Positions 32,669-58,282 of a stretch of 64,000 nucleotides of DNA are shown here, one piece after another (the stretch's first letter is position 1; every line of letters starts with the position of its first letter). Under the pieces are notes generated by a model, which was not told where the DNA came from, did not search any database, and saw only the letters and a list, made by a program, of their open reading frames with translations. Source of the stretch: Candidatus Gottesmanbacteria bacterium GW2011_GWA2_43_14 (GTDB taxonomy: Bacteria > Patescibacteriota > Microgenomatia > 2-02-FULL-39-11). The stretch covers positions 80,930 through 144,929 of the forward strand of contig LCFP01000004.1 in NCBI GenBank assembly GCA_000999095.1. Reading direction: 5' to 3'. Both the position numbers and the translations under genes were made by a program.

Positions 32669-33400
32669 TCAACTGCTAAAGCCCGGCCGCCAGCCTCCAC
32701 TGATTTCCAGATTGGCACCATTGATATAGGCCGATTCCGTTGACAATAAAAAGTGAACTGCCGCGGAAATATCTTCAAATTGAGCAAATTTACCTGTGGG
32801 GGTCTTGGGTTTGGCGAAGCTGGTTTTCAGGATTCCCGGGGATATGGAATTGACTGTAATGCCGTACTTGGCGTATTCGAAGGCCATTACTTTGGTAAGC
32901 ATAATAACTGCTGTTTTGGCCATATAATACGGGGTGGTATTCTTTCGAATAGTTATGGTGTCTGCGGCGACTGCTCCGAAATTGATAATCCGTCCCCATT
33001 TTTTCTTTTTCATTTCCGGCAAAGCCTGTTGAGAACAGAGAAAAGTCGCATAGAGATTGGATTCAATAACATCTTTGAATTTGGCAAATGAAGTTTCGGC
33101 AATCGGCTGATAAATAAAATTGCCGATCAGGTTTATAAGTATCTCCACCGTGCCCAGCTTCTTTTCGATATGTTTAAACATAGTGTTTACTTCGGCAGGC
33201 TCAGTCAGGTCTGCCCGGAACATTTCTCCCGAGGAATATTTCTTGACCTGTGATATGGTTGCGGTTGCTTCGGTCAAGCTATCCCTGAAATGGACGGCGA
33301 TTTTAGCTCCTTTTTCCGCCATGGACAAAGCCAAATGGCGGCCTAAATTTTTTCCGCTGCCCGTGACTAATACTGTTTTACCTCTCAATTCATTTTTCAT
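32669..33400 (-). CDS. SDR-family oxidoreductase
   Basis: Rossmann motif TGSGKNLG and catalytic YxxxK (YYMAK). Confidence 0.8.
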   Translation of the reverse strand: MKNELRGKTVLVTGSGKNLGRHLALSMAEKGAKIAVHFRDSLTEATATISQVKKYSSGEMFRADLTEPAEVNTMFKHIEKKLGTVEILINLIGNFIYQPIAETSFAKFKDVIESNLYATFLCSQQALPEMKKKKWGRIINFGAVAADTITIRKNTTPYYMAKTAVIMLTKVMAFEYAKYGITVNSISPGILKTSFAKPKTPTGKFAQFEDISAAVHFLLSTESAYINGANLEISGGWRPGFSS

Positions 33401-37651: not shown

Positions 37652-37870
37652 TTACGTATTGAGGTTGGCAGTATAACCGGCCTTTTTGATGATTTCTTCG
37701 ATTTTCTTCTCGTCCAGCACTTCCGGATCAAATTCTACTTCCGTTAGGGCTTTGGCATAATTGGTTCTGGCTGATTTGATACCATGGTTATCTTCAAGCT
37801 CAAAATCAATGTTTATGGCGCAGGCAGTGCAATGCATATCCAGTATTTTCCAGACGGTTTTTTTAGTCAT
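37652..37870 (-). CDS. heavy-metal-associated (HMA) domain metallochaperone, CopZ-like
   Basis: MxCxxC motif (DMHCTACAINI). Confidence 0.75.
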   Translation of the reverse strand: MTKKTVWKILDMHCTACAINIDFELEDNHGIKSARTNYAKALTEVEFDPEVLDEKKIEEIIKKAGYTANLNT

Positions 37871-37874
37871 AATG

Positions 37875-38900
37875 CTAAATCACTTTGATGACTCCGTTAT
37901 ACATACCCATACTGCAGGAGAAAGTCAGGTCCTGGGGAATTTCCGGAGCAGTGAAAGACAAGCTTGTTTTACTACCCGTTCTGACGACTTTTTGGATATT
38001 TAATTTGGGGATAACGAAAGCCTGGATGCAGCCTTCTCCGTCATTATTAATAAGATTCAGTTTTACCTCGGACCCTTTTGCCACCGTAATATTTTCAGGT
38101 GAATACCCGCGTGAATTAAAGTAAATAGTGGCTTCCGAAACAGGCGTGGCAGCCTTGGCCAAAACCTGGCCGGAACAATTGCTTAAAACCGTACAGTTAA
38201 AATCTTTCCATAAATTATTAAGGGTGAAGTTGGAGCCCGACAAAACCGCGGCCGCATTAATGTTAAAAACAGCCAAAAAGATAATGGCAAAAGCGGCTAT
38301 TTTGCCAAACGAGGTTTGGAACAGGGAACTTAATTTGGTGGTTAATAAACCTAAAATAAAAAAGACGGGCGCAGTACCAAGAGTAAAAGCAAACATAATT
38401 ATGGCAGAATAAGCAGGGTTGGCTGAAACCAGTGCTAAAGCCATCATTGCCTGAGTGGTGCCGCAGGGGATAAAAATTGTCAAAGCACCCAAAAAAGCAG
38501 GTGCAAATAAATCACCGCTTCTCGATTGCCGGCGGATGATCCTCAACAGGAAGCGGGGAGGCTGGATAATGAAATAACGGAAAATGGGGTGAACATTCAA
38601 TAAATTAAGTGCAGTGCCGATCATAAAGATCCCGACGGCTATTTGCAGAAAGACTTGGGTTGAGACTGACAACCGGAAGAAAGAGCCGAAAATTCCCAGC
38701 AACGCACCCAAGACAGTATAGGCGATGATTTTGGCTATCAGGAAAGCTAATATCGGCCAAGCCCGTCCTTTGGTGGCGATACCTCTCAGTCTGTCTTCTT
38801 CATTCTGTACAAGTGTGGTTGCCAGCAGACCGCCCTGGACGGCCATGCAGGATAAACCGCCAGTAAGAAGCCCTGTTAAAAAAACGGTCCACAAATTCAT
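37875..38900 (-). CDS. membrane protein: DsbD_2/CcdA-like Cys-pair transmembrane domain fused to a C-terminal cupredoxin-like Cys/Met metal-binding domain
   Basis: TM region with conserved GGLSC and IPCG motifs. The extracytoplasmic C-terminal domain has a GEGC...FSCSMGMYNGVIKV motif. It is a paralogue of 45805..47643 but lacks the HMA domain. Confidence 0.55.
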   Translation of the reverse strand: MNLWTVFLTGLLTGGLSCMAVQGGLLATTLVQNEEDRLRGIATKGRAWPILAFLIAKIIAYTVLGALLGIFGSFFRLSVSTQVFLQIAVGIFMIGTALNLLNVHPIFRYFIIQPPRFLLRIIRRQSRSGDLFAPAFLGALTIFIPCGTTQAMMALALVSANPAYSAIIMFAFTLGTAPVFFILGLLTTKLSSLFQTSFGKIAAFAIIFLAVFNINAAAVLSGSNFTLNNLWKDFNCTVLSNCSGQVLAKAATPVSEATIYFNSRGYSPENITVAKGSEVKLNLINNDGEGCIQAFVIPKLNIQKVVRTGSKTSLSFTAPEIPQDLTFSCSMGMYNGVIKVI

Positions 38901-38949: not shown

Positions 38950-39084
38950 TTATTTCTTTTTATTGATTTCTTTCCAGAAATAAATGATTCCCAGAACCAG
39001 AAAAGTGATTATAAGCAGCCAGGTTACAGCTCCCAAAAAGCCCCAACCTCCCATCATGCCGGAGTAACCCCAATTAGCCATCAT
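38950..39084 (-). CDS. small membrane peptide (44 aa), Met/Gly/Trp-rich N-terminus
   Basis: Not in the ORF track because it is under 60 aa. Strong SD sequence (AGGAGGTG) 7 nt upstream of ATGATG. Sequence MMANWGYSGMMGGWGFLGAVTWLLIITFLVLGIIYFWKEINKKK with one TM helix. It lies between two operon genes. Confidence 0.45.
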   Translation of the reverse strand: MMANWGYSGMMGGWGFLGAVTWLLIITFLVLGIIYFWKEINKKK

Positions 39085-39132
39085 ACAAATCACCTCCTGA
39101 TTCTATTATAAATGAAATCTTTAAAAGTAAAA

Positions 39133-39558
39133 TCAGATTTTGCGTTTAAGTCGGATGAGATAAATTATACTCGCGAGATTGGAAAGAATTGCCAACAGTA
39201 AAATTTCTTTCTGGAATTGGATTAAGAGTGAAGTGAGAAGACTTAAGCCTAACAGCGGCAGGACATCAGTCAGATGATGGGCGCAGCAGGCGATCATACC
39301 CAGAGTCGAAGTTGAAGAATTGCCCACCATCATTTTACGGCTGCCCCCTTTAATTTTATTTTTTAAGCTGACATAAAGCCCGGATTGAATCCCGAAACCG
39401 GCAGAGAGTGAAGTCATGTAAGGCCAAAGTGTCGAAAATTGCCACCAGGCAGTTTCAAAAGAACCTGTCAGAAGTCTCATAAGGAAAAAATAAAAGGTCA
39501 AAAGAAAGGATGAAGCAACAATCCCCATGAAAATGGGGGAGGAGAGAAATTTAGTCAT
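39133..39558 (-). CDS. hypothetical membrane protein with an intramembrane ACCAHH motif
   Basis: 141 aa and 4 TM segments. A vicinal Cys pair followed by His-His (GMIACCAHHLTD). Confidence 0.45.
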   Translation of the reverse strand: MTKFLSSPIFMGIVASSFLLTFYFFLMRLLTGSFETAWWQFSTLWPYMTSLSAGFGIQSGLYVSLKNKIKGGSRKMMVGNSSTSTLGMIACCAHHLTDVLPLLGLSLLTSLLIQFQKEILLLAILSNLASIIYLIRLKRKI

Positions 39559-39564
39559 AGTCTT

Positions 39565-39837
39565 TCAACTTTTTTTAGCTAGATAATTATAGGTTGCGGC
39601 AATAAAATAACCGGTGATCCAGGCTGATATGCTGAAAGTGATAAAGCCGAATAGAACAGTTCCGATTGCAGGCGGCTGTCTGTTCCAGACAGTGGTCACA
39701 TCCACGCCGTGCATCCAGGATTGGGCAAATTGACGGTAAAGATCCGGTGCCAAAAAGACCAGCAGTGTGCAAATAAGATAATAGGCAGCTGCCACAATGG
39801 CCAAAGTATTGGCTAATACCGATTCCTTAAATTTCAT
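39565..39837 (-). CDS. hypothetical small membrane protein
   Basis: 90 aa and 2-3 TM segments. Same operon. Confidence 0.4.
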   Translation of the reverse strand: MKFKESVLANTLAIVAAAYYLICTLLVFLAPDLYRQFAQSWMHGVDVTTVWNRQPPAIGTVLFGFITFSISAWITGYFIAATYNYLAKKS

Positions 39838-39840
39838 GTT

Positions 39841-40302
39841 TCACCCCCTTTCCCCTTCAACTTTAAATTCCCTTCTCGGGATGCCTGATAAATTCTTAAT
39901 TATTATGGCGAAAGGAAGTTCAATTTTTTCAAAAACCGCCTTTGCTTTTTTATGATGGGTTTGTCCAGAAACTTCAATTTTTAGAGACGGATAAAGTCCT
40001 TCGTTTTTTTCAAGATAAATACCTTTCTGATAATCATAAGCATCCAGGTTGACATTATGGGTATCAAAATTCAAATTAAAATTCCAACCATCCTCATCCC
40101 CTCCGGCATAAGCGACGGAAACGCTGACCCCGCCGGCTGCACCGGCCGAAGGACTGACAACCACAGAGTCAGTGATTTGATTAGAAGTGATCAGGCTTGA
40201 GGTATCTGTATCTTTTGCTTTAGTTAGGGTAAATAGAAGAATAATAGCTAGAATCCCACTGATTAAGAATAAAAACCAATATTCCCAGGATATTTTTTTC
40301 AT
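39841..40302 (-). CDS. TM-anchored extracytoplasmic protein (possibly FixH/YtkA-like beta-sandwich)
   Basis: N-terminal signal anchor, then a 120-aa Gly/Ala-rich and beta-rich domain. Family assignment is speculative. Confidence 0.35.
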   Translation of the reverse strand: MKKISWEYWFLFLISGILAIILLFTLTKAKDTDTSSLITSNQITDSVVVSPSAGAAGGVSVSVAYAGGDEDGWNFNLNFDTHNVNLDAYDYQKGIYLEKNEGLYPSLKIEVSGQTHHKKAKAVFEKIELPFAIIIKNLSGIPRREFKVEGERG

Positions 40303-40318
40303 CTATTCTTCCAGTGTA

Positions 40319-41260
40319 TCAGACGCCGCAGCCGCCGCCGCCTTCAACTTTGGGAAGGATGCCTTCCGACTGAAGTTCCTTGTTGATAGCCTGGTAACCG
40401 GCGCCACTCGAGTAAGGACTGCCTAATGCCTCCTTGGGATCTACATCCTGCCAATCCTCACCCTTTTTGCTTTTGAAGTACATGGCCAGTTCCACATAAG
40501 TCTGGGGGAACCACTGGGAATTTAAAAGCAGGGCTTTTTTGTATATTTCATTCCGGCTCATACCCTGGACAACGGCCAGCTCAATATAGCCCAGCATGGC
40601 CGCCCCGTGATTGCAGTCGGGAAAGTAGGTGGAATTGCCGCAGCAGGGCCGGTAAATATTTTGGGCAATTTCAATCACTTCCTTTTCCTGTTCGGGCGTT
40701 AACGGCAGGATAGGGAAACGGTTGAAAAGTTTACCGCCTTCCTCCTTTCCCAAAGTCCAACCGCCGGTTGAAGCGTAATTGCCGGAATCTTCCTTCATCG
40801 GCCCTTCTTCCAGAAATTTGGTTTTGTTGGCAATTCCCAGCGGCCAGAGGAGGTTGAGGATGATGGCATTGTTTTCTTTGGTGACGATTATCTTTTCGGA
40901 AGAATCCTTATCAAAAAGATCCGTAAATTCGGCAGGTAAACCTCCGCGGCTTTGATAGAGATCTAAAAATTTTTGCTTATCTATAGCGCCTGTCTCGACC
41001 ATTTTTTTGACGGTCTCACCAAAGGAGACACCGAGGTTGAATTTATCAGGCAGAACTTTTTGGGTTACTTCTGAAAGCAATTGATCGGACTTAATAGAAG
41101 CCGTTTTTTCTGCTGGTGTTTCACTTTCCGGATTAGTAGCTTTCCGGTAATTAGAAAGTTTCGGGATAAGCACAAACAATAACAGGCCGATCAAAAGTCC
41201 CGTGACAATACCGGTCAAATAAGATTGATGTTTATTTTCAGAATTATTTTTTTTCACCAT
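40319..41260 (-). CDS. TM-anchored extracytoplasmic protein with a PCCGNSTYFPDCNHG motif (uncharacterised)
   Basis: 313 aa with a single N-terminal TM segment. Conserved-looking Cys cluster (RPCCGNSTYFPDCNHGAAM) and a C-terminal GGGGCGV. No family recognised. Confidence 0.45.
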   Translation of the reverse strand: MVKKNNSENKHQSYLTGIVTGLLIGLLLFVLIPKLSNYRKATNPESETPAEKTASIKSDQLLSEVTQKVLPDKFNLGVSFGETVKKMVETGAIDKQKFLDLYQSRGGLPAEFTDLFDKDSSEKIIVTKENNAIILNLLWPLGIANKTKFLEEGPMKEDSGNYASTGGWTLGKEEGGKLFNRFPILPLTPEQEKEVIEIAQNIYRPCCGNSTYFPDCNHGAAMLGYIELAVVQGMSRNEIYKKALLLNSQWFPQTYVELAMYFKSKKGEDWQDVDPKEALGSPYSSGAGYQAINKELQSEGILPKVEGGGGCGV

Positions 41261-42059
41261 GGCCTACCTCCTTTATCATAATTTTGATAAATATAACCAA
41301 AAGGGCAATCAATAACAGGTCTATCAGGGGATTTCCCAGCCGATTGGACAGATTAAAGATAAATCTTCTAAGGGATTCTCCGTAGGCCATATTCTTATCC
41401 ATCTCAATTTTTCCCGTCAGAGCCATCAAAGCGATAATCACCGCCGAGACCATGAAAGTAACAGAAGCCAATATTTTCAGCGGTTTTTCCCAACTACTCT
41501 TGATTTTATAGAGGTATTTATTGCTCAGCTTTTCATAAAAAAGAGACAGGAAAAAAAGAGGGAAAACGATTCCTAAGACATAGGCTATTGAAACAATCAG
41601 GGAAGACAGAAGGGTCGGTGATAGTGAGGACAGGGTGATAGCGGCAAAAAGAACCGGGGCGCAGCAAGAGGAGGTGATACCGGAAAAAAGTCCCAATATA
41701 TAAGTTGAGAGGACAGTTGTTTCTTTGGGCATGGTGTAATGGGGCAGGGGAAGCATCAGTTTCACTTCAAATAGAGTCATCAACCCAACCAGAAACATCA
41801 CTAAAGCCCCAAGAAGATATGTCGTGGTATGGAATTTATCAAAGAAAGAGACGATAATCGAAGCGCCCAAAGCCACCGGTACCAGGATTGATCCCAAACC
41901 CGCGGCAAAAATCATCGTCAGAAAAACCACCCTTTTCCTATCTTTGAAAATTGTTCCCAAATAAGAAGGAAAAAGAAAAGTAATACAGCAGGGAGCAAAC
42001 AAGGCCACCATGCCGCCCAAAAAAGAGGCAGTCAGGGAAACTCCGAAGAAAAGATTCAT
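41244..42059 (-). CDS. CcdA/DsbD-like membrane protein with two vicinal Cys pairs
   Basis: Polytopic membrane protein. FAPCC in TM1 and SSCCAP in a later TM, at the positions where CcdA carries SPC/PC motifs. Confidence 0.5.
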   Translation of the reverse strand: MNLFFGVSLTASFLGGMVALFAPCCITFLFPSYLGTIFKDRKRVVFLTMIFAAGLGSILVPVALGASIIVSFFDKFHTTTYLLGALVMFLVGLMTLFEVKLMLPLPHYTMPKETTVLSTYILGLFSGITSSCCAPVLFAAITLSSLSPTLLSSLIVSIAYVLGIVFPLFFLSLFYEKLSNKYLYKIKSSWEKPLKILASVTFMVSAVIIALMALTGKIEMDKNMAYGESLRRFIFNLSNRLGNPLIDLLLIALLVIFIKIMIKEVGHGEKK

Positions 42060-42065
42060 AAGTAA

Positions 42066-42587
42066 TTATTCGACTGTGGCATTGATATTGAATATCAAGG
42101 TTTCATTTTCCGGGTCATTGGTGTTGAGTGAGGCTTGTCTGGTAACCAGTCCTTTGACCGGCATAATAAACGGCCGGTAAGTAACAAACAATTTGGCTGT
42201 CTCTCCCGGCGGCAGTTGAGCCTTCCAGTTGTTTTTTGAATGCATGGTAAATTCCGGACTAATGACTCCATTGATATCCAGTTTGGCAAATGTACAGTCG
42301 CAGGAAGTCGATAATTTATAGAGTTCCAAAGGCTTGGAGCCGTTATTTTTTATGCTGAATTCAGCTGTCCTCTCATCACTGACTTTCATCTTGCCCAATT
42401 CTTTTAAATTAGAATCAATTGAAGCCGCCGGTTTTTCCGTGTCACCTTTGGTATAAGAGATAGCATCTGATTGCGTGGCTCCCTTTCCTTCTTTAACGGC
42501 AAAGACAATAATCAGTAGGAATACCAGCAAGGTGAATCCGCCAATTACCAATAATATTAATTTTTCTCCTGAGAAGCGTTTGAACAT
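42066..42587 (-). CDS. DUF1573-domain protein (TM-anchored, extracytoplasmic)
   Basis: Signal anchor plus a DUF1573-like beta-sandwich region with an SCDCT motif (LYKLSTSCDCTFAKL). Confidence 0.55.
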   Translation of the reverse strand: MFKRFSGEKLILLVIGGFTLLVFLLIIVFAVKEGKGATQSDAISYTKGDTEKPAASIDSNLKELGKMKVSDERTAEFSIKNNGSKPLELYKLSTSCDCTFAKLDINGVISPEFTMHSKNNWKAQLPPGETAKLFVTYRPFIMPVKGLVTRQASLNTNDPENETLIFNINATVE

Positions 42588-42644: not shown

Positions 42645-45566
42645 CTATTCAAAAGCCATGGAGGAGCTGATTTTGGCAAAACCGCCGAAAATTATGCTGA
42701 AAAGAATCAGCATCGCAAGCGGAGCAATCAAAGACAAGTAATTCCGTTTGCCCGGCCGGAAATATTTTAAAGTCAGGGAATTGGTAACGACGGAGATGGA
42801 GGATAAAGCCATGGCCAAACCTGCCAATTCGGGTTTAAGCACAAGCCCCATGAAAGCGAAAGCCCGGGCAGCGACGGGGATGCCAACGATGTTATAAAAG
42901 AGGGCGAAAAACATGTTTTGCTTAATTTTACTCATCGTATCGTGGGAAAGATTGATGGCAGTAACTACATCCCGCAGGTCGTTTTTGACGATGACGATAC
43001 CGCCTGTTTCCATCGCGACATCAGTTCCCGAACCCATGGCAATCCCTAAATCAGCCTGAGCTAATGCCGGCGCATCATTGATGCCGTCGCCGACCATGGC
43101 CACAATTTGTTTTTTATCCTGAAGTTTTTTGACTTCATTGGCTTTGTCTTCAGGTAAAACTTCCGCCAGAATATTGGTAATGCCGACCTGATCAGCAATA
43201 GCCTGGGCAGTCCGTTCATTGTCGCCGGTGATCATATAAACTTCGATATTTCTTTTTTTAAGCTGATCGATAGCTTCCCGGCTGGTTTCTTTGACGGTAT
43301 CGGCAACCGCAATCGCTCCCAGGATCTGATTTTTATCTGCCAAAAGCATGGCGGTTTTACCCATGTTTTCCAATCTAATCAGTTTGTCGTGAAGTTGACC
43401 GAGCTCAACTTTGGCGACATCTGTCATCAGTTTCCGGTTGCCCATATAATAAGTTTCGCCTTTGATGGTGCCGGTGACTCCGTGACCGGGTATGGCCTTA
43501 AAATTCTCGACATTCTTCATGAGCATATCTTTTTCCCGGGCAAAGCCTACAATGGCTTCCGCTAAAGGATGTTCAGAAGATTTTTCCAATGAAGCGGCAA
43601 TTTCCAGGATTTGAGCCTCTCCGGTTTCAGTGTAGCTTTCGATATCGGTCACAATCGGTTTGCCGTTGGTTAAAGTACCGGTTTTATCGAAAATGATGGT
43701 TGTTATCCGGCAAATCTTTTCCAAGGGTTCGCCGCCTTTTATTAAAATGCCGTGTTCCGCGCCCTTACCAGTACCGACCATCAAAGCGGTCGGAGTCGCC
43801 AAGCCCAAGGCGCAGGGACAGGCAATGACGATAACGGCCGTGAATGCCATCAGGGCAAATGATAAGGAAGCCCCAAAGATCAGGTACCAGACGAGAAAGG
43901 TGCCGATGGCGATAATGATGACGGCCGGGACAAACCAGGCTGAAATGCGGTCGGCGAAGGCCTGAATGGGTGCCTTGGAACCCTGGGCTTCCTCAATTAA
44001 ACGGATGATTTGGGCTAGCGTGGTTTCGCTGCCGACCCGGGTTGCCTCAAATTCAAAGCTGCCCATTTTATTGATGGTTGCCCCGACCACATTATCACCG
44101 CTGTTTTTTTCAACAGGTATGCTTTCGCCGGTAATCATCGATTCATCGACGGAAGATGAGCCTCTGATAATTTTGCCGTCAACCGGGATTTTTTCGCCCG
44201 GCCGGACCAGCAAAATGTCGCCTTTGACCACCTGATCCAAAGGAATATCAACCGTATTGCCATTTCTTATAACTCTGGCGGTTTTTGGCTGAAGGCCCAT
44301 CAATTTTTTTATGGCATCTGATGTTTTACCCTTGGCTCTAAGTTCCAGCCATTTTCCCAAAAGAACAAAAGTAATCAAAAAGGCGGATGTTTCAAAATAC
44401 AATTCCGGTATTTTTTCTATCACCGGCCCGAGGAGAGTACCTGTTAGGGAGAAATAACTCAAATAATTGAAAGCGCTGTAAAAATAGGCAGCCGAGGTGC
44501 CGATGGCTATCAGACTGTCCATATTAAAGGTTTTCATCCTGAGAGCGGACCACATGCCTTTATAGAAACCGTAACCCAAAACAAACTGCACCGGGGTCGA
44601 CAGGATGAAAGAGAGGACGCCGACATAAGGATTAAAGAACAGTTTGCCGATTGCACCCGGGAAAAAGTCGAACAGCATGAAATAAAGCAATGGCAAGCTC
44701 AGGATCAGGCTGGAAATGAACTTCGAAAAAAGCATTCTAGTTTCTTCCTGACGTTTTCGCGTTTCAAATTCGGTATCTTTTTGATCAATCTGACTGGCTT
44801 TATAACCGCTGTTTTCCACCGCTTTGATCAGATTTTCGACAGTCGCCTGGTTAGAGTCAAAGTCAACCAGCGCCTTTTCGGCGGCAAAATTGACGTTGGC
44901 GGAAGAGACGCCATCAACCTTTTTAAGGGAACGTTCAATCAGTTGGGCACAGGAAGAGCAGTGCATACCGGAGAGAGATAACGAAACTCTTTTGCGTATA
45001 TCAGGCGTTTCAGCCGGAGTACTTATTTCAGGAATTTGTGATTTTTTTGCCGGTATTTGATCAGGTTTATTCGACAAGACGTTATCTTGGGAGGGGAGAG
45101 GGTTGAATAGCGGGGCATTATCCAAAGATCCGGAAAGTTTTGACATAAAATTCTTCACTTCTCCATTACCGAAAGATTGTTGGTATTCGGATTTTTGGAA
45201 TTTGCTGATTTTACCATCAAAAAATGGTTCACCATGATCATTTAGAAAAACACGCCCTTGCGCTTCAACTCTTGATTCAATTTTAACCGGAACACTGCTT
45301 CTTGTCACTTTTGCCCCAGCGGTGCTTTTATTAGCTTCCGTTCCAACACTTTCTTCCTGGAGTGCTTCATAGCCTGCCCGTTTGACCGCTTCGATCACTT
45401 CGGTCAGGCTGTTTTTACTTTGGTCAAGAGTGAGAACGGCCAGCTGTTTTTGGAAACTGACATTTATATCGGAAACACCCGGTAAAGCCGCCAGTTCCTC
45501 TTTCGTAACCACTTCACAGGAGCGGCAATGCATGCCTTTGATATTTAATTTCAGCTTTTTTTTCAT
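42645..45566 (-). CDS. copA: copper-translocating P1B-type ATPase with two N-terminal HMA domains
   Basis: Two MxCxxC HMA domains ([18 protein letters not shown]), TM6 CPC ([12 protein letters not shown]), DKTGTLT, the YN and MxxSS TM signatures, and GDGINDAP. Confidence 0.9.
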
Positions 45567-45579: not shown

Positions 45580-45792
45580 TCAGTTTATAACCTGATAATC
45601 CGTACCTTCCAGTGATTTCTTAATTTCCGTAAGATTAATATCACGTCTGGCGGTAACTTGCGCCTCACCGGTCAGGGAAACGTTAAAATCCAAAACACCT
45701 TCGATTGAATTGACTCTGCGTTTGATAAGTTTCAGACAAGCGTCACAGGTGATGCCGGTAACGTAGAATTTTAGCGTATTTATATCGGACAT
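45580..45792 (-). CDS. copZ: HMA-domain copper chaperone
   Basis: GITCDAC MxCxxC-type motif. 70 aa. Immediately upstream of copA. Confidence 0.8.
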
Positions 45793-45804: not shown

Positions 45805-47643
45805 TTAAACAACCTTAATAATGCCGCGGGGTACCCCCATGGCGCAGGTAATCGGGTATTCACCGGGAGTTTTCGGGGTGAATTCAAGAACTATCGTTTC
45901 TCCCTTTTTAAGAAATTGGGGATTATCGGCTAAACCGGGGACGGCAATTGTTGCCATACAGCCGGAACCGTTGTCTTTGACTTCAATTTCCATTCTGACG
46001 GGCTTTCCCGCATTAACTTCAAAAGCATTTGGACTGATATCAGTATTTTGGGTATACACAGTTTTAATGATTTGCTCATCTTTATTTTCTTGAGCTTTCA
46101 CCGGAGTGACATTTGTGTTTTGGACCTGCTTTTGCCCTCCACCTCCGCAACCGCAGCCTCCGCTACCGCAAGACGCACCTCCGGCAGAATTAGCGGTTTT
46201 AACAGCGGCGGTGTCATCGGGGAGAGTCGCAGCCTGTACTTGAATACCATTGACATCATTAACCACCCTGATCGATCCGGAAAACATGCCCATACTGCAG
46301 GTAAATCGGATAACGCCTTCTTCGGAAGGCGTAAACTCAATCACATTTTCACCAGGATGGAGCAATTTTTGCACGCCGATTTTGTCGGCCACAATTGAAG
46401 CGGCACAGGTGTTGGGATCTTTGGAATCGATAACCCAGCGGACAGGTACGCCTTTTTTAACCGTGAAGACTTTCGGATTGTAACCTCCGGCATCCTGGAC
46501 CATACGGATGACCTGTTTGCCGTTTTCCAGTTGAACTCCTTCTGTATCAGCTGCTGCCACAACAGTTGTTTTCCCGGGGAAATTAAAATAACCCGGATTT
46601 AAGCCGGTCAGATTCAGGCCATTGTTAAGATTGAAAAGACTTAAGACGATAACAACGACACCGGCAATCCGGAAAAAACTTTGAGCAAAAGCTCCTTTGA
46701 CCAGCGATGTCAAACCGCCAATTCCCAGAAGTCCAGGTGCTGTCCCCAAGGCAAAAGTGCCCATGATTAAAGCGCCCGAAACAGGATTGCCTGTCGTCAT
46801 GGCAAAAAGCTGCATCGCCTGGGTGAAGCCGCAGGGCAGAAAAAAGGTCAGGCCTCCCATAAAGACAGAATTTTTATTGCTGTATTCAGCCTCTTTTTTT
46901 GAATTAATTCTCAAAATTTTTCCCACTCCGGCAGGCAGAGTCAGTTTAAAATCTTCCAGTCTGGGGGAAAGCCCGGTTAGCTGTAAACCCATCAAAAGCA
47001 TAACCATGCTTACAAAAACCGTCAGCATACCAAGGCCGAAACCGGACAGCTGGAAAAAAGAACCAAACCAACCGATTATCGCACCGAAAAAAAGATAAGA
47101 ACCTATCCTGCCAAGATTAAAAAACAGATGCGGTTTGAATTTTTCAAGAGGAGTAGCTAAAGAATGCTTTTCGGCAAACCTGGCAGAAACACCCAAAACC
47201 AAGCCGCCGATTAAAGCCATGCAGGTGGAGAAGCCGGCTGTTAACCCGATTAAAAGCACTACTAAAAGGCTGGAAGGATGATTGGAGATGGCCGGCAGGG
47301 CAATTTTAATGCCGAAAATGTCTAGGAGAACATAGCCTAAAAAGACGGCAATCAGAAAAATTATTATTTCCTGATAAATATTAAAATCGCGGGTAAATAA
47401 AGGTTTTTTTTCGGGTAGGCCGATTGAATAGCCTGCTCCTTCGATAGTCGAGTTGACCGCTTCATAGTTTAGATTACCTTTATAAGCGATTTCCGCTAAG
47501 CCCTTTTTTTGGCTGACGGCAACTTTTTTGACACCCTCAAGAGAGCAGAGTTCACCTTCAATCAAAAGCTCGCAAGAACGGCAATGCATGCCTTTTATCG
47601 GAACGGATGCTGTTTTTATCATGTTAAAAATCTTACCAGTCAA
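45805..47643 (-). CDS. fusion protein: N-terminal HMA domain + DsbD_2/CcdA-like Cys-pair membrane domain + Cys/Gly-rich linker + two cupredoxin-like Cys/Met domains
   Basis: HMA domain ([10 protein letters not shown]). TM core with GFSTC and FFLPCGFTQAM motifs. Linker ASCGSGGCGCGGGG. Two repeated extracytoplasmic domains ending FTCSMGMFSGSIRVV and ITCAMGVPRGIIKVV, each with an upstream conserved Cys (NTCAAS / GSGCMA). Confidence 0.6.
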   Translation of the reverse strand: MTGKIFNMIKTASVPIKGMHCRSCELLIEGELCSLEGVKKVAVSQKKGLAEIAYKGNLNYEAVNSTIEGAGYSIGLPEKKPLFTRDFNIYQEIIIFLIAVFLGYVLLDIFGIKIALPAISNHPSSLLVVLLIGLTAGFSTCMALIGGLVLGVSARFAEKHSLATPLEKFKPHLFFNLGRIGSYLFFGAIIGWFGSFFQLSGFGLGMLTVFVSMVMLLMGLQLTGLSPRLEDFKLTLPAGVGKILRINSKKEAEYSNKNSVFMGGLTFFLPCGFTQAMQLFAMTTGNPVSGALIMGTFALGTAPGLLGIGGLTSLVKGAFAQSFFRIAGVVVIVLSLFNLNNGLNLTGLNPGYFNFPGKTTVVAAADTEGVQLENGKQVIRMVQDAGGYNPKVFTVKKGVPVRWVIDSKDPNTCAASIVADKIGVQKLLHPGENVIEFTPSEEGVIRFTCSMGMFSGSIRVVNDVNGIQVQAATLPDDTAAVKTANSAGGASCGSGGCGCGGGGQKQVQNTNVTPVKAQENKDEQIIKTVYTQNTDISPNAFEVNAGKPVRMEIEVKDNGSGCMATIAVPGLADNPQFLKKGETIVLEFTPKTPGEYPITCAMGVPRGIIKVV

Positions 47644-51318: not shown

Positions 51319-51497
51319 CTAGCATAATTTTGGGGATCAGCTTCAAAGGTTTTTTGGCAGTTTTCCGAGCAGAAATAGTAGGTTTTGCCATCATGGTTGC
51401 TTTTATATTCCGCTTTTTCAGGATCGACCATCATTTTGCAAACCGGATCTTTAACCTTGTTTTTATTGGCGGAAAATAATTTATCTAAGAAACTCAT
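51315..51497 (-). CDS. YHS-domain metal-binding protein
   Basis: DPVCKMMVD...YYFCSENC is the YHS/TRASH motif. Start placed at the ATG at 51497, which forms an ATGA overlap with the upstream DUF305 stop. Confidence 0.7.
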   Translation of the reverse strand: MSFLDKLFSANKNKVKDPVCKMMVDPEKAEYKSNHDGKTYYFCSENCQKTFEADPQNYAS

Positions 51498-51865
51498 GGA
51501 TTTGCCTCCCATTCTTTTTGCCACATTTTCATTTGTTCAATTTCGTTCTCTTGAGCTTCTATTATATCATCTGCCAAATTTTTGATCTCTTCATGCATGC
51601 CTTTTGCTTTCGCTTCTTTGGCCATTTCAATGGCGCCTTCATGATGGACCATCATCGAGTTCATGAAAGCCATATCAAAATCTTCCCCTTCAGCCTTTTC
51701 CAGTGATTGCATCATTTCATTCATGCTGGAATTCATGGTCATCATGCCGCTGCCACCCATCATATTAGCAGGTTGAGCCTGCTGTCTGTTGTAACCTGTT
51801 ATGAGAACTGTTAACAGAATCCCGGCGATAAAAGTTGTAATTGCCAATAAATAATTATTTTTCAT
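51494..51865 (-). CDS. DUF305-family protein (Met/His-rich, copper-resistance-associated)
   Basis: Signal anchor. Met-rich stretch (MMGGSGMMTMNSSMNEMM) and the DUF305 motif MMVHHEGAIEMA. SD sequence GGTGA upstream. Confidence 0.7.
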   Translation of the reverse strand: MKNNYLLAITTFIAGILLTVLITGYNRQQAQPANMMGGSGMMTMNSSMNEMMQSLEKAEGEDFDMAFMNSMMVHHEGAIEMAKEAKAKGMHEEIKNLADDIIEAQENEIEQMKMWQKEWEANP

Positions 51866-51879
51866 TTCAAATCACCGCC

Positions 51880-51900
51880 ATCTATAGATAAGTATCTATA
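51880..51900. promoter_or_regulatory. palindromic operator-like site in the DUF305 promoter region
   Basis: ATCTATAGAT (10-bp perfect palindrome) overlaps TATAGATA-ag-TATCTATA (8-2-8 inverted repeat), 15-37 nt upstream of the DUF305 ATG. A related AGATA-tt-TATCT palindrome lies at 50223..50234. Confidence 0.4.
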
Positions 51901-51949
51901 AATATTAGCATAACAAAGATTAAGATTCCATGAAGAAAGACAGATTCAG

Positions 51950-52612
51950 TCAGACCCGATGGTGATCGATGCCGCGGTAGGCTTTAATAAATTTTTCTAT
52001 TCTCTCTTCATTAAACTCATTGAATTTATCCAACTTGGTCCAGGCTGTCAGGGCGATTTTAGTATCAAGCTGAGGGTAGGGGGCAAGTATTACTTTATCC
52101 TTATATTTTTTTATGACGGCTGTTAATCCGGCAACCAGTTTTTGGCATTCATCTTGCCCTTCGGCACTGTCAGTGGCCTCTTTTTGGCTGTCCCCATCCG
52201 GCGTGCAATTATACTGTACCATAATCCCGCCGTCCTCCAGATTATGAAGCTGGAGTTCGTCAGGAATAGGGGACCCGCTTACTCCCCAGGGGGCTTTATT
52301 ATTCACGTGGGTACCTGAAGTCGGAGGCAGGGAATTGTAAGATTCGTGGGTATCGGTGATGTTTTGGATATGTTCATTGCCTAAGGTGGGGACAAATTCC
52401 CCGGGCTTCGGTTTAGAGGCTTCTCTGATAAACCAGTATCCGCCAGCAAGAAACACCAAACAAGCGGCAATAATTATTCCGTATTTCTGCAACTTACCCA
52501 GCCGCAGCTGTTTATTCATCTGTTCCCGGTAAAATGCACGTTTTATCTTCCTGCGTTCTTTTTTGGGTAATCCTTCAGGTAAATCAGGTCTGTTTTTCAT
52601 AACAGATTTCAC
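51950..52612 (-). CDS. DUF3105-domain protein
   Basis: N-terminal TM segment, then LGNEH...PPTSGTH...HNLEDGG motifs typical of DUF3105. Confidence 0.65.
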   Translation of the reverse strand: MKSVMKNRPDLPEGLPKKERRKIKRAFYREQMNKQLRLGKLQKYGIIIAACLVFLAGGYWFIREASKPKPGEFVPTLGNEHIQNITDTHESYNSLPPTSGTHVNNKAPWGVSGSPIPDELQLHNLEDGGIMVQYNCTPDGDSQKEATDSAEGQDECQKLVAGLTAVIKKYKDKVILAPYPQLDTKIALTAWTKLDKFNEFNEERIEKFIKAYRGIDHHRV

Positions 52613-52725
52613 AAACTTTCAGTAAGGTGTTCTGAATTATTAGTAAGGACAAAAATATAGGGAAAAAGCCTAAAAAGAAATAAGGATAAACTTAAGAAAC
52701 CGGTGAAATATCCATAAATTTATAT

Positions 52726-53466
52726 TTATTTTAAGGCTGCATCAATCATAGGCTTGATACTTTCATAGGGAAGAGCCCCGGGTATAAGCTGGGTACTGCC
52801 ATTTTCAGTCAGAATGATTGTACCGGGAGTTCCAGTTACACCTTCTTCACTTCCTTTGGCCATCTGGTCCTGCACTTTTTGGGTATACTTACCCGAGTCA
52901 AGACATTTTTGGAATTTGGTCTGATCAACCCCTACTTCATTGGCCAGGGAACCCAGTTTGTCCAGCGCAAAGCCGGTGCCATTGGAGGTCGTACGCTCAA
53001 AAATGGCATCAATATATTTCCAAAAAACGTCATTGCCTCCCAATTCGTTGACACACCAGCCTGCCTCCGCTTCTTTTTGTGCATTCTGATGAAAGTTTAA
53101 AGGGTAATCACGATACACCCATTTTACTTTATCACCGTATTCTTTCATGACCTGCTGCATGGTGGGATGAAAATTTTTACAGTAGGGACATTCCAGATCA
53201 GAGTATTCAATAAGTGCTACTTTGGCGTTTTTGTTGCCTCTCACGCGGTCATCACTTTCCAATTCCGGCTTTTTGGCTGCAGGTTGGGGAGAGGGGATTT
53301 GCGCGGAAACGGTGTCGTTTCCTCCTGTCCCGGCCTGGATTTCCGCCACGCCCGGGTTTCCTTTTTCCAGAAGTTTAACTTTGGTGTAAAGGGAACCGAT
53401 TGCAAACGAAGCGACAATTAGAAGGGCAACCAGAATTAATGAGCTTTTAGATTTTACTTCAGACAT
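52726..53466 (-). CDS. DsbA-family thiol:disulfide oxidoreductase (BdbD-like)
   Basis: Signal anchor. Thioredoxin-fold CxxC (ECPYCKNF). Confidence 0.8.
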   Translation of the reverse strand: MSEVKSKSSLILVALLIVASFAIGSLYTKVKLLEKGNPGVAEIQAGTGGNDTVSAQIPSPQPAAKKPELESDDRVRGNKNAKVALIEYSDLECPYCKNFHPTMQQVMKEYGDKVKWVYRDYPLNFHQNAQKEAEAGWCVNELGGNDVFWKYIDAIFERTTSNGTGFALDKLGSLANEVGVDQTKFQKCLDSGKYTQKVQDQMAKGSEEGVTGTPGTIILTENGSTQLIPGALPYESIKPMIDAALK

Positions 53467-53468
53467 AT

Positions 53469-53485
53469 TACTACAAAGTGTAGTA
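53469..53485. promoter_or_regulatory. BlaI/CopY-type operator (perfect 7-3-7 palindrome TACTACA-aag-TGTAGTA) abutting the dsbA-like start codon
   Basis: Perfect inverted repeat located 2 nt upstream of the ATG (minus strand) of 52726..53466. A near-identical site lies upstream of the BlaI/CopY-like gene (54817..54833). Confidence 0.5.
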
Positions 53486-53510
53486 GTAAAGCTGACGGTT
53501 TGTCAATAGG

Positions 53511-54446
53511 TCAAAGCGGGAGTATATAAAGTCCGGAACATGAATGGTGGCATTCTGTATTCGGGCGGCAAAAAGATTTATGTCCCCCGTTTTCCGGACC
53601 GGTTTCCGCAGTTGACACTGAAGATAAAGCAAACACCAGAAAAATTATAAGAGTGAAAAAGGTTTGGAGGAGATTTTTAAGTGAGGGTTTTTTGGCGGGA
53701 ACTTTCAGATTAAGAAGCGCCTTTATTCTGGCCTCAAGAGTTTCGTACGCGTTTAATCCGGCAACCGCCGGCAGGGGAGCGGGTTTGTATGTTATGAGTT
53801 TTTTAAGAACATCTGACAGACAGTATTGGTCATTTTTTTGCCGGATGGCCTGCCGGTCAGCCTCAAGTTCGCGATTCAGTCTGTAATTTCCTATCAGATC
53901 TGAAACAAGCGGAAAGAAGGGAAATAAGCATTGGGTTAGATCGGCCAACAAAAGGGTGGCCGTATCTTTGTTTTCCAAATGGTATTTTTCGTGGCGCAGA
54001 ATGACTGCCAGTTCCTTCAGGCTAACCAGCCTGATAATTCCGGTGGTTATGAATATCCTAGGGTTTAAAAAGCCAAAGCAAAAAGCGGTCGGAGCATTTT
54101 TTGGGAGGATCATTACTTTATTTTCCAAACCTAAATCTTTAATAAGTCTTCTCGTCCGTTTATTCCCGGTAACCAGCGGGGAAAGGGTGCGGCTAAAGCG
54201 GTATATTTTAAAGAACGAGATAAGCAGTTTTATGGCAGTATGGAGTATCAGTAGGGACAAAAATATAAAAATAAAATCTCCAACAAGAGGGCTTGAGCCA
54301 AATGATATGTTTTTTACCATTTCCCGACAGTAATAAAGCGCATGATGAAAAAAAACCGGAAAAAACCTAAACAATATTAACAGATAACCTGATATAAGAA
54401 AGGTAAAAAGAAATGAAAAAACAAAAAGATATTTATTTATTTTCAT
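53511..54446 (-). CDS. M56-family peptidase, BlaR1/MecR1-like transducer protease domain without a penicillin-binding sensor domain
   Basis: 4 TM segments plus a zinc-protease motif HEKYHLENKD (compare BlaR1 HELYHxxRxD). It overlaps the upstream repressor gene by 14 bp. 311 aa, and there is no C-terminal PBP domain. Confidence 0.7.
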   Translation of the reverse strand: MKINKYLFVFSFLFTFLISGYLLILFRFFPVFFHHALYYCREMVKNISFGSSPLVGDFIFIFLSLLILHTAIKLLISFFKIYRFSRTLSPLVTGNKRTRRLIKDLGLENKVMILPKNAPTAFCFGFLNPRIFITTGIIRLVSLKELAVILRHEKYHLENKDTATLLLADLTQCLFPFFPLVSDLIGNYRLNRELEADRQAIRQKNDQYCLSDVLKKLITYKPAPLPAVAGLNAYETLEARIKALLNLKVPAKKPSLKNLLQTFFTLIIFLVFALSSVSTAETGPENGGHKSFCRPNTECHHSCSGLYILPL

Positions 54447-54813
54447 CCGGATTGGCCAATAATTTTAACAGGCGCTTTTTTTTATCCTTGGGGAGCCGTT
54501 CGATCGATTGGGCAAAAGAGGCAACCGCCGAATCGCCAAAGGAAGAGAAAAACTGGCGCATAAATGACCGGGCGGCGCTTTTACCGTAATCGACTTTTGA
54601 AATTTTGGGAAAGTAGTACAGGCGGGAATCATGAGTTTCCTTCAAGACTAAGCCTTTTTGATAAAGGCGGGAAAGGATGGTGGCCACGGTAGTATAAGCA
54701 AGTTTTTTCTTAAGGTTGATTTTTCTCACGACATCACGCACAGAACAATCACCGCATGCCCAGACAATTTCCATAATCAGTTGTTCCAGATGGCTTAATG
54801 ATTTGACGGACAT
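54433..54813 (-). CDS. BlaI/MecI/CopY-family transcriptional repressor
   Basis: Penicillinase-repressor winged-helix N-terminus (LSHLEQLIMEIVWACGDCSVRDVVRKI...TTVATILSRLYQKGLV) and a C-terminal dimerisation helix. Confidence 0.8.
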   Translation of the reverse strand: MSVKSLSHLEQLIMEIVWACGDCSVRDVVRKINLKKKLAYTTVATILSRLYQKGLVLKETHDSRLYYFPKISKVDYGKSAARSFMRQFFSSFGDSAVASFAQSIERLPKDKKKRLLKLLANPDENK

Positions 54814-57181: not shown

Positions 57182-57847
57182 TCATTTCGAATTCCCTGAA
57201 ATAGCGGATTTAGCGATCATTTCGTCCAGAAGAAGTTTTACATTGGGAATAAAACCGGGAACTTCGTTTTTATATACTTTGTACACCGACCCGAATTTCC
57301 TGAGCATCTTTTTTTCTTCACTTTTTGCCAGACGGATGTAGCGGAAAATAAGGATCGGCGCCATGACAAGCGTTATAATGGTTGGCCACTGGATGAGAAA
57401 ACCAACAATTATAAGGATAAAGGCCAGATATTGAGGGTGGCGCAGATATTTATAGACACTAATAACAGCCAGACTTTGTTGCTTTTGGGCTTTATAAAGG
57501 ACTTCCCAGGCTTTACCCAAAAGAATTAACCCTCCGATAATAAGCGCGTAACTGATGATATGCAGGATATTAAAGTGAGGATCACCTTTCAGACCCAACA
57601 GGGTGTTTAATATATGACCGTTGTTGTGTGTAAAATCCAAGCCTAACCGACTTCCAAAGAACGAAGTTAACAGGTAAATTGTCAAAGGAAATCCATACAT
57701 TTCGGCAAACAGCGCGACTATAAAGGCTCCAAAGATACAGTAAGTCTGCCAATCAATCTTTGTTCTTGGTTTGAAAGCGCTATAAATAAAATAGAGAAAA
57801 AGAACAATATTGAATAAAACCAGAAGCCAGTTACCATACTCATACAT
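57182..57847 (-). CDS. isoprenylcysteine carboxyl methyltransferase (ICMT/PEMT)-family membrane protein
   Basis: C-terminal region RHPQY...EE..L...FG..Y..Y is characteristic of the ICMT family. 5-6 TM segments. Confidence 0.65.
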   Translation of the reverse strand: MYEYGNWLLVLFNIVLFLYFIYSAFKPRTKIDWQTYCIFGAFIVALFAEMYGFPLTIYLLTSFFGSRLGLDFTHNNGHILNTLLGLKGDPHFNILHIISYALIIGGLILLGKAWEVLYKAQKQQSLAVISVYKYLRHPQYLAFILIIVGFLIQWPTIITLVMAPILIFRYIRLAKSEEKKMLRKFGSVYKVYKNEVPGFIPNVKLLLDEMIAKSAISGNSK

Positions 57848-57898
57848 ATACGAACAGTGTAACAGTAAGAGATTAAGAATTTATGAGGCCTTTATCAA

Positions 57899-58282
57899 TT
57901 ATCTGCTTCTATCAATAATTTCTTTAATAATTTTATCAATTTCGATAGGTAGCGCACCGAGATGTGCTTTCGGGAAAAACCGGGGAAGGATAATTGGGCG
58001 CATGCCTGAAATATACGTAATCCCATCCTTCCGGTAGACGTTTATCTTACAGGGCAAACATAATCCTATCTTGATATCAGCCTGAAGTACAGTATAGGCG
58101 CTTCTAGCATTGCAAATCTCGATAATCTTGAATGGTTCAGCCTTAAAACCCTTCTCTTTCAATGTGGCTGTGACATCATGGATATAAAGCACGCGAAATC
58201 CGGCATTTTTCGTTTCTTTCTCAACCGCTTTAACCGCTTGATCAAATGATTTCTCCGTTGTAACCGTGTAATCAAAATCCAT
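57899..58282 (-). CDS. DUF302-domain protein
   Basis: 127 aa with the DUF302 fold signature (FRVLYIHDVTATLKEKGF...IIEICNA). Confidence 0.7.
   Translation of the reverse strand: MDFDYTVTTEKSFDQAVKAVEKETKNAGFRVLYIHDVTATLKEKGFKAEPFKIIEICNARSAYTVLQADIKIGLCLPCKINVYRKDGITYISGMRPIILPRFFPKAHLGALPIEIDKIIKEIIDRSR

Follow-up and report, generated by a model that had tools for sequence, protein, structure and literature searches.

Conserved cysteine motifs in a six-gene membrane block downstream of copA in a Candidatus Gottesmanbacteria genome

The copper island and its six-gene block

We analysed a 64,000-nt stretch of a Candidatus Gottesmanbacteria genome (candidate phyla radiation (CPR), Microgenomates), referred to here as the window, whose positions serve as coordinates throughout; the host is a tiny, uncultured groundwater bacterium. 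The subject is a block of six genes (39133-42587, 1,141 amino acids (aa) in total) that lies directly downstream of a gene for a CopA-type P1B ATPase. Two of its products, of 313 and 141 aa, showed 100% identity to hypothetical proteins from Candidatus Gottesmanbacteria bacterium GW2011_GWA2_4x. The block belongs to a copper island of 11 open reading frames (ORFs) of at least 70 aa on the same strand (-), running from 47643 to 37652, or 12 when a small ORF of 44-47 aa is counted. The intergenic gaps were between -17 and 57 bp, except for a single 232-bp gap containing the small ORF, and the GC content was even across the region. Scans with Pfam and NCBIfam models gave the following assignments, listed in island order (TM, transmembrane; Ig, immunoglobulin):

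45805..47643, -, island's first gene, HMA domain, DsbD_2 membrane domain and two Cupredoxin_1 domains, 612 aa (Pfam PF00403, PF13386, PF13473); 12-bp gap to the next gene
45580..45792, -, CopZ-like HMA metallochaperone, 70 aa, CDAC motif (Pfam HMA, E 6.8e-9; NCBIfam CopZ/MerTP-type matches below cut-off)
42645..45566, -, CopA-type P1B ATPase, 973 aa, with a CPC membrane motif and two N-terminal HMA domains with GMHCxSC
42066..42587, -, DUF1573 Ig-like protein, membrane-anchored, 173 aa (Pfam PF07610, E 1.4e-10)
41244..42059, -, CcdA/DsbD-family membrane protein, 271 aa (family-profile match to 5VKV); overlaps the next gene by 17 nt
40319..41260, -, PCC protein, 313 aa, N-terminal membrane anchor and extracytoplasmic domain, new family
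39841..40302, -, u153, 153 aa, membrane-anchored extracytoplasmic domain, new family
39565..39837, -, DUF5676 protein with two TM segments, 90 aa (Pfam PF18926, E 3.7e-21)
39133..39558, -, CCAHH four-helix membrane protein, 141 aa, invariant in-membrane motif
38950..39093, -, unannotated small ORF, 44-47 aa, Met/Gly/Trp-rich N-terminus MMANWGYSGMMGGWGF, one TM segment, AGGAGG just before it
37875..38900, -, DsbD_2 and Cupredoxin_1 domains, 341 aa, Cys/Met motif FSCSMGM (Pfam PF13386, E 3.2e-30; PF13473, E 2.8e-12)
37652..37870, -, island's last gene, HMA protein, 72 aa, CTAC motif (Pfam HMA, E 3.7e-11)

The initial annotation of this DNA had described the block as six uncharacterised proteins with recurrent vicinal cysteines, which it took to be soft-metal transfer sites. 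All six ORFs and every motif that it quoted were found in place on the minus strand: FAPCC and SSCCAP in the 271-aa protein, RPCCGNSTYFPDCNHG in the 313-aa protein, MIACCAHH in the 141-aa protein and SCDCT in the 173-aa DUF1573 protein, as well as MNCCNN (59950-59955) and GDCCVFC (60093-60098) in a second metal cluster of the window. Cysteine made up 0.86% of the 20,305 residues encoded by the approximately 76 predicted genes of the window, and four CC dipeptides were observed in the block against 0.085 expected (Poisson P ~2e-6). Outside the two metal clusters, the dipeptide occurred in a single doubtful ORF (32753-33091) nested in a minus-strand ORF (32669-33400). All 13 cysteines of the block are motif positions, with the motifs kept in homologues, and in the PCC, u153 and CCAHH proteins every cysteine and almost every histidine is a motif residue. 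Non-conservation of the cysteine pairs among homologues, which the initial annotation had named as a refutation of its proposal, was not observed, the pairs being invariant in hundreds of them.

A doubled-cysteine CcdA relative, its DUF1573 neighbour and the PCC family

The 271-aa protein has seven hydrophobic segments and carries its doubled cysteines in FAPCC (C24 and C25, 41985-41990) and SSCCAP (C132 and C133, 41661-41666). A profile of 26 syntenic homologues (profile A3) matched Thermus thermophilus CcdA (5VKV) with an E value of 3.5e-17 over the six-helix core (profile positions 6-223), and 13 of the 26 family members individually reached the CcdA family PF02683 (best E 9.5e-13). C24 and C132, the first cysteine of each pair, aligned with the two active-site cysteines of CcdA, and both were invariant. 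The PCC and CCAP motifs were conserved in 26/26 aligned members, including P23, C24 and C25 as well as C132, C133, A134 and P135; the second cysteine was also present in essentially all of the 120 closest database relatives and in 31 of 35 CcdA-type genes neighbouring PCC. We therefore assign the protein to the CcdA/DsbD family, with each active cysteine doubled (hereafter CC-CcdA), and for this member of the block the description as uncharacterised does not stand.

The likeness to CcdA extends over approximately 200 residues and includes the six-helix core with cysteines at aligned positions in TM1 and TM4. Compared with PCxxP, the proline at +3 is lost in TM1 and the preceding proline is lost in TM4, and unlike in CcdA each active cysteine is followed by a second invariant one, giving the motifs APCCxxxxxP and SSCCAP; an extra C-terminal hydrophobic segment is also present. 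The partners differ as well, being DUF1573, PCC or CCAHH and not the thioredoxin-like ResA/CcmG, with no cytochrome c context. From its adjacency to DUF1573 and PCC, both exofacial proteins with cysteine motifs, we infer that CC-CcdA would transfer electrons from cytoplasmic thioredoxin to an extracytoplasmic partner.

The DUF1573 protein, which has one TM segment, also matched the HYDIN/VesB Ig-like family (PF22544, E 8.6e-9). Its CxC motif (SCDCT) involves residues 96 and 98 (42294-42302), and [ST]SCxCT was kept in all 30 syntenic homologues. The NCBIfam model for the OS_HP2 (seleno)protein (NF041425) matched over the motif with an E value of 1.1e-8, at 35 bits against a cut-off of 100, which places the protein outside that subfamily. 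In the selenoprotein form, this CxC corresponds to a UGC (UxC) site (PMC9312934). A rhodanese was fused to DUF1573(CxC) in four loci.

The PCC protein contains the motif RPCCGNSTYFPDCNHG, with C206 and C207 at 40640-40645, C216 at 40613-40615 and H218 at 40607-40609, and ends in a flexible tail GGGGCGV bearing C311 (40328-40330). A total of 2,563 homologues were retrieved from a database clustered at 90%, falling into 515 clusters at 50% identity, and the protein is encoded in at least 592 GTDB species, almost all of them Patescibacteria. The pattern RPCC[GND]N[SP]Tx[FY]xDCNHG (CC..C.H) was present in 268 of 269 sampled members, almost all of which terminate in GGGGCGV or a near variant; the invariant columns are G91, W139, R204, P205, C206, C207, N209, D215, C216, N217, H218, G219, A221 and C311.

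No Pfam, NCBIfam or PDB sequence match was found for the window protein, nor any Pfam or NCBIfam match for 66 family members, and a profile search of the PDB returned nothing below an E value of 0.17. An AlphaFold2 model (predicted local distance difference test (pLDDT) score 89.9) comprised an anchor helix and two subdomains, one alpha/beta and one helical, with C216 at the N-terminus of helix 217-231 and the tail disordered (pLDDT 43); a Foldseek search of the PDB with this model gave no match at E < 1. The PCC protein can thus be regarded as the founder of a large unannotated family with no solved-fold match, and the earlier statement that the 313-aa and 141-aa proteins belong to no nameable family held for both in Pfam, NCBIfam and the PDB. 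According to the Pfam and NCBIfam models, PCC and u153 are not members of CopC, CopZ/HMA, CusF, PCuAC, CueP, CopG/DUF411 or DUF1541. Several PCC homologues carry lipoprotein or signal peptides (L083, P0363, P0413 and P0397 in our set), which places the PCC domain outside the cell. An Fe-S cluster in PCC was considered and rejected in view of the Sec-type anchor or lipoprotein signal, the lack of a twin-arginine motif and the exofacial location. GGGGCGV was likewise rejected as a C-terminal sorting signal, there being no hydrophobic segment after the tail.

Natural fusions join the PCC domain to an HMA domain plus a TM segment, a plastocyanin-type cupredoxin, rhodanese (three clusters), DsbC_N and zinc-ribbon-like cysteine motifs. 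In 22 of 150 representatives, it is fused to a four-helix membrane domain with a CPxCG motif (4TM-CPxCG). The gene order DUF1573 - CC-CcdA - PCC, or permutations of it, recurred in the set of 81 genome loci. Within 5 kb of short-form PCC genes, we found CC-CcdA in 40/62 cases, DUF1573 in 36/62 and a P1B ATPase in 30/62; for the 4TM-CPxCG-fused (long-form) PCC genes the corresponding counts were 5/25, 1/25 and 3/25. Fisher's test gave P values of 2.8e-4, 1.8e-6 and 1.5e-3, respectively, which are only indicative since the loci share ancestry, the neighbourhood counts being affected also by short contigs. As CcdA and DUF1573 are rarely near long-form PCC, the N-terminal 4TM-CPxCG domain appears to replace them as the partner of PCC.

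Further genes were observed around PCC in other genomes. The DsbA - 4TM - PCC - rhodanese operons found at long-form loci repeatedly encode a membrane-anchored protein (approximately 140-175 aa) whose motif is (I/L)HWHP(E/T/V)L, with copies in L001 (3716-4240), L015 (3028-3552) and L016 (8813-9340 and 11224-11643), both L016 copies being without a Pfam match. Two loci of a more distant lineage (L083, 5406-7558, and L084) encode a PCC homologue of the lipoprotein type, DUF2085 and a CCAHH homologue, after which come ArsR-type regulators, DsrE, DUF302 and an S-adenosylmethionine methyltransferase, and upstream lies a 68-aa membrane protein with MAICCALP; this context hints at use with other soft metals or metalloids. 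In L083, a Met-rich, TM-tailed protein of 173 aa that resembles the small ORF at 38950-39093 of the window comes after CCAHH/ArsR. In the GC-rich, non-CPR loci L087 and L088 and in L082 (ANME-2), fused PCC and CCAHH genes lie by HMA, two DsbD_TM genes, and CcmF/CcmH or CcmE/CcmF, suggesting that in cytochrome-containing organisms the two families may share a CcdA/DsbD hub with cytochrome c maturation.

CCAHH, u153, DUF5676 and related four-helix membrane proteins

The CCAHH protein carries the motif M-x-A-C-C-A-H-H-L-T-D in the third of its four long helices, CCAHH itself being encoded at 39274-39288. We found 75 homologues in CPR, ANME-2, Diapherotrites and Chloroflexi. The CC/HH residues were invariant in 36/36 diverse homologues, along with M88, T97 and D98 (C91, C92, H94 and H95 being the cysteines and histidines). 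A further 80 metagenome loci had been fetched with the CCAHH motif itself, which makes motif conservation among them circular; the 36 diverse homologues are the independent test. No Pfam, NCBIfam or PDB sequence match was found, the Pfam and NCBIfam scans including the 36 family members. The AlphaFold2 model (pLDDT 83) had the cysteine pair in a predicted membrane helix and no Foldseek match in the PDB at E < 1.

Profile comparison with hhalign indicated that CCAHH is remotely homologous to the 4TM-CPxCG domain (probability 83.5%, E 8e-6, 143 columns) with the cysteine motifs aligned; control comparisons of the 4TM families with CcdA and DUF5676 gave probabilities of 1-19%, suggesting that the match is specific. 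In addition, a CCxHH membrane domain is fused directly to PCC in P0383, which was 31% identical to the window protein (E 2e-13). We group the CCxHH, CPxCG and GCAxCG forms as what appears to be a new four-helix membrane superfamily. It is not assigned to DsbB/VKOR, given the absence of any Pfam or PDB sequence match and of any Foldseek match in the PDB at E < 1, the only resemblance being a gene pairing with DsbA. The stand-alone four-helix proteins have GCAxCG as an invariant motif of helix 3 and carry a cysteine after helix 4. Their genes directly followed a DsbA-like gene in 9 of 10 genome loci, and such a protein is possibly a DsbA partner in CPR. The DsbA-adjacent loci are L013, L015, L016, L026, L055, L065, L068, L079 and L011, and also L103, L105, L108, L113, L121, L123 and L153. 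None of 19 stand-alone four-helix proteins fell into a Pfam or NCBIfam family; one relative matched MerT/MerTP (E 6e-5 to 3e-4). In the PDB, the stand-alone profile matched only the GMTCxSC loop of ATP7B HMA domains, locally and with an E value of 1e-3, which was judged to be motif convergence and not homology.

Two loci contain CCAHH fused to an N-terminal HMA domain without a signal, indicating that the N-terminus of CCAHH is cytoplasmic. The u153 protein contains no cysteine, and its only three histidines (H82; H116 and H117) form the conserved motifs [DN]TH[STN] and G(G)HH; it had no Pfam or NCBIfam match. A u153-CCAHH fusion was found in seven loci, and in the metagenome set a u153 gene lay within 1 kb of CCAHH in 49 of 77 loci. 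In the same set CC-CcdA was encoded directly upstream of CCAHH in 11 loci, and the order P1B - CcdA - CCAHH - u153 - (DUF3105 - DsbA - 4TM) recurred. Synteny and fusions thus link two modules, DUF1573(CxC)-CcdA-PCC and CCAHH-u153.

The DUF5676 protein has a cysteine (C23) in TM1 and an SWxHG loop, the cysteine being kept in 18/21 and the histidine in 15/21 syntenic homologues. It matched NCBIfam merT_RC607 weakly (E 0.04, 14 bits against a cut-off of 130). The CCAHH, DUF5676 and 271-aa proteins are not members of MerT (PF02411), MerF or MerC, no Pfam or NCBIfam match to these having been obtained at threshold. Literature searches on DUF5676, on CcdA and copper in Patescibacteria, and on DsbA/VKOR in CPR gave nothing on these families.

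Possible functions of the block and other genes of the window

Two themes meet in the block. A soft-metal theme is suggested by the CopA, CopZ and HMA-DsbD_2-cupredoxin genes that flank it, by the HMA-CCAHH, HMA-PCC and cupredoxin-PCC fusions, by the invariant histidines of CCAHH and u153, and by the MerT/MerF-like vicinal cysteines. A thiol-disulfide theme is suggested by CcdA, the Ig-like CxC domain, the DsbC_N fusion, the pairing with DsbA, and rhodanese. The proposal of the initial annotation that the cysteine pairs are soft-metal transfer sites is therefore sustained in part only: two of the four CC motifs are carried by a thiol-disulfide transporter of the CcdA family, and the CxC of DUF1573 corresponds to a selenoprotein UxC site. 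Because of the CcdA homology, this UxC correspondence, and the DsbC_N-PCC and rhodanese-PCC fusions, we judge at least part of the block to be thiol-redox machinery, instead of or besides metal-transfer sites.

The explanation that we favour, with slightly less than even confidence, is that the six genes encode two linked modules of a CPR-specific exofacial thiolate system for copper or another soft metal, which would serve copper tolerance together with CopA. The block would be co-transcribed with the CopA/CopZ efflux genes. In the first module, cytoplasmic thioredoxin would supply the reducing equivalents that CC-CcdA passes through the membrane to the anchored, Ig-like DUF1573 protein, whose CxC domain would act in the role of the Ig-fold alpha domain of DsbD/ScsB, and from there to the PCC protein. 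PCC would combine a centre of Cys206-Cys207, Cys216 and His218 at a helix start with the mobile Cys311 on its glycine tail, and its thiols, when reduced, would bind the Cu(I) that CopA releases, repair thiols oxidised by copper, or do both. In the second module, which would include DUF5676, the in-membrane Cys2His2 site of CCAHH would exchange the ion with the exofacial three-histidine domain of u153. This model builds on gene order, motif invariance, CcdA homology, extracytoplasmic location, co-occurrence and fusions, from which the direction of electron flow, Cu(I) as the ion, and the order of hand-over between the proteins are inferred.

The two-module explanation is favoured because a published relay, Scs/CueP, has both thiol-redox and metal activities: cysteine domains with an Ig fold are used by DsbD and ScsB, and CueP receives the Cu(I) that Scs proteins have bound (PMC10907172). 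The block shares with DsbD/ScsB-ScsC-CueP of Salmonella and Caulobacter (PMC10907172) a DsbD-family membrane electron conduit, an Ig-fold cysteine domain that primes its partners, cysteine-rich extracytoplasmic Cu(I) proteins needing reduction (here predicted), and genetic coupling to CopA-type efflux and copper stress. Unlike in Scs-CueP, the conduit is a minimal CcdA with doubled cysteines (PCC/CCAP) and without soluble domains, the DUF1573 CxC domain is a separate polypeptide, the terminal PCC protein has a putative new fold unrelated to CueP or ScsC, and the host is a CPR bacterium without an outer membrane. The block also contains no thioredoxin-fold partner, the nearest DsbA-like gene (CPYC) being at 52726-53466; it does not belong to Scs and the likeness is functional only.

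Resemblance to MerT/MerF and to the C-terminal cysteine-pair tail of MerA lies in the vicinal cysteines in or by a membrane helix, in the frequent HMA fusions, and in a proposed hand-over between HMA domains, membrane cysteine sites and a cysteine on a flexible C-terminal tail. Unlike in Mer, sequence membership was not detectable, CCAHH adds two invariant histidines and four helices, PCC is extracytoplasmic with no flavin domain, and a copper-type ATPase (CPC) is nearby in place of a mer regulator or reductase. The u153-CCAHH pair recalls CopC-CopD (PcoC-PcoD, YcnJ), in which a small exofacial beta-rich His/Asp domain is paired with or fused to a polytopic membrane protein; however, no sequence similarity was found (no Pfam match), CCAHH has four helices with an in-membrane Cys2His2, and the metal site of u153 is putative. 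Overall, the logic of the system appears to be that of a DsbD/Scs-type relay, with parts that seem new and mainly CPR-restricted, namely the doubled-cysteine CcdA, the separate DUF1573 CxC domain, the PCC fold with its C-terminal cysteine arm, and the CCxHH/CPxCG superfamily with its His-motif partner.

Several observations weigh against the two-module explanation. The window sequence of the 271-aa protein alone gave no Pfam match at E <= 0.1, only the family profile being significant, and to our knowledge a doubled cysteine in CcdA has no precedent as an electron carrier; a metal site is possible instead. Many invariant polar residues of PCC (R204, N209, D215, N217, N247 and the ASTGGW loop) resemble an enzyme pocket more closely than the site of a simple chaperone. 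The long form of PCC is seldom near P1B ATPases, its neighbours being DsbA and DUF3105; PCC is thus perhaps not specific for copper, and the rhodanese fusions indicate sulfur chemistry. The shared ancestry of the loci, noted above, weighs in the same direction.

Some of these points would suit a purely redox pathway for reductive disulfide repair or isomerisation, like DsbD-DsbC or ScsB-ScsC, with PCC as a new-fold thiol oxidoreductase, CC sites that bind no metal physiologically, and copper genes that adjoin only because copper stress oxidises thiols. The CcdA homology and the UxC site agree with this, as do the DsbC_N-PCC fusion (PF10411, E 1.3e-9), which has PCC in place of the thioredoxin domain of DsbC, the stand-alone 4TM relatives directly downstream of DsbA in 9/10 genome loci and again in several metagenome loci, and the association of long-form PCC with DsbA and not with P1B ATPases. 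We nevertheless consider it rather unlikely. The HMA-CCAHH, HMA-PCC and cupredoxin-PCC fusions speak against it, a P1B ATPase is encoded no more than 5 kb from approximately half of the short-form PCC genes, and the histidines invariant in CCAHH and in u153, which has no cysteine at all, are ligands and not disulfide-exchange residues. Conversely, CC-CcdA and CCAHH might be direct metal permeases that move Cu(I), Hg(II) or As(III), not electrons, by thiolate ligand exchange in the manner of MerT/MerF, with PCC, DUF1573 and u153 as donors or acceptors at the outer face; import would then be possible, for cuproprotein assembly or intracellular detoxification. The precedent is that vicinal cysteine pairs of MerT/MerF are essential for Hg(II) transport (PMC5500634), and four cysteines at the membrane centre of a CcdA scaffold would suit a soft-metal site. 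Cytoplasmic HMA, CxxC or zinc-ribbon elements N-terminal to 4TM domains, the neighbouring HMA-DsbD_2-cupredoxin proteins of the same layout, and the weak MerT-type matches of DUF5676 (E 0.04) and one stand-alone 4TM member point the same way. Such transport is nonetheless improbable in our estimation, as no member reaches the thresholds of the MerT, MerF or MerC families, the consistent pairing of the CcdA-like protein with an Ig-like CxC protein is that of electron relays, the window has no MerA, MerR or ars operon, and no energy source for transport is evident.

The sulfur chemistry could also be taken further, into persulfide trafficking, where rhodanese would load sulfane sulfur on the C-terminal cysteine of PCC in the manner of DsrC/TusE, CcdA and DUF1573 would recycle thiols, and sulfide or persulfide would precipitate or detoxify thiophilic metals. 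A single invariant cysteine on a Gly-rich tail fits this role, and there are three independent clusters of rhodanese-PCC fusions and four rhodanese-DUF1573 fusions; membrane-anchored rhodanese genes adjoin PCC in several loci and occur also in the second cluster of the window (58426-58887), and DsrE and a cysteine desulfurase are near the PCC/CCAHH pair in L083. With rhodanese within 5 kb of only 8/87 PCC genes and absent from the block itself, with no sulfur-oxidation or sulfur-reduction genes seen, and with the His motifs of CCAHH and u153 left unexplained, we hold this to be quite improbable. Ordinary cytochrome c maturation by CcdA with accessory proteins is scarcely credible, as is a block of unrelated hypothetical genes clustered by chance. 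The initial annotation had named cytochrome c maturation as an example of the non-metal function that would count against it; a non-metal element is indeed supported, by the CcdA homology and by the fusions of PCC to DsbC_N and rhodanese. Some sources do annotate the 271-aa protein as a cytochrome c biogenesis protein, and CCAHH or PCC is near CcmE/F/H in two non-CPR loci, but no CxxCH occurs in any window gene and the window has no Ccm or Res genes. Against chance stand synteny and fusions that recur over hundreds of lineages, and the CC enrichment (P ~2e-6).

A considerable part of bacterial diversity belongs to the CPR, or Patescibacteria, and for most proteins of their envelope no function has been assigned. 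PCC, the four-helix superfamily and the doubled-cysteine CcdA are connected with copper efflux, DsbA and rhodanese through synteny and through natural fusions of more than ten kinds. Beyond the block, it is conceivable, if doubtful, that PCC and the four-helix superfamily constitute an unrecognised envelope thiol/metal machinery, mostly of CPR, in which four-helix proteins would stand in for DsbB/VKOR or DsbD-type partners in organisms lacking quinones, and PCC, as a catalytic Cys3-His domain of new fold whose C-terminal cysteine swings, would link thiol-disulfide exchange with extracellular copper or sulfur chemistry. Such a machinery would take over DsbB/VKOR/DsbC functions in these bacteria. 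If the relay operates as proposed, it would show how minimal, quinone-poor bacteria hold exofacial thiols reduced and handle copper, and a new protein fold would join the short list of copper- and thiol-handling domains. The soluble PCC domain (approximately 250 residues) and the u153 domain (approximately 110 residues) are small, expressible targets for biochemistry.

Other metal-related genes are present elsewhere in the window. GDCCVFC of the second cluster is part of a 77-aa protein with a GDCCVxC domain (60006-60239, -; NF041374, E 2e-25), and MNCCNN is the likely true N-terminus of a DUF2933 protein with its Met near 59961, the 145-aa ORF call being probably over-extended. A third CC of this cluster occurs as LICCGML in a 115-aa membrane protein (59348-59695, -) with no family match. 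A second P1B ATPase of 764 aa (54867-57161, -) has the membrane metal motif CPD, and not CPC/CPH (IACPDALGLATP), and an N-terminal YxCPMH..CPKCGMPL followed by a His/Met-rich stretch. Adjacent to it, a set of envelope stress genes (51494-54813, -) encodes a BlaI/CopY-like repressor (54433-54813), a BlaR1/M56 membrane protease (53511-54446), the DsbA-like protein with CPYC, DUF3105 (51950-52612) and DUF305 (51494-51865); DsbA and DUF3105 recur by the PCC and CCAHH genes of other genomes. Between the 764-aa ATPase and the small cysteine-rich genes (57182-58887, -) lie genes for an ICMT-family membrane methyltransferase, DUF302 and the membrane-anchored rhodanese; an ICMT gene was also found directly upstream of PCC in L008 and L009.

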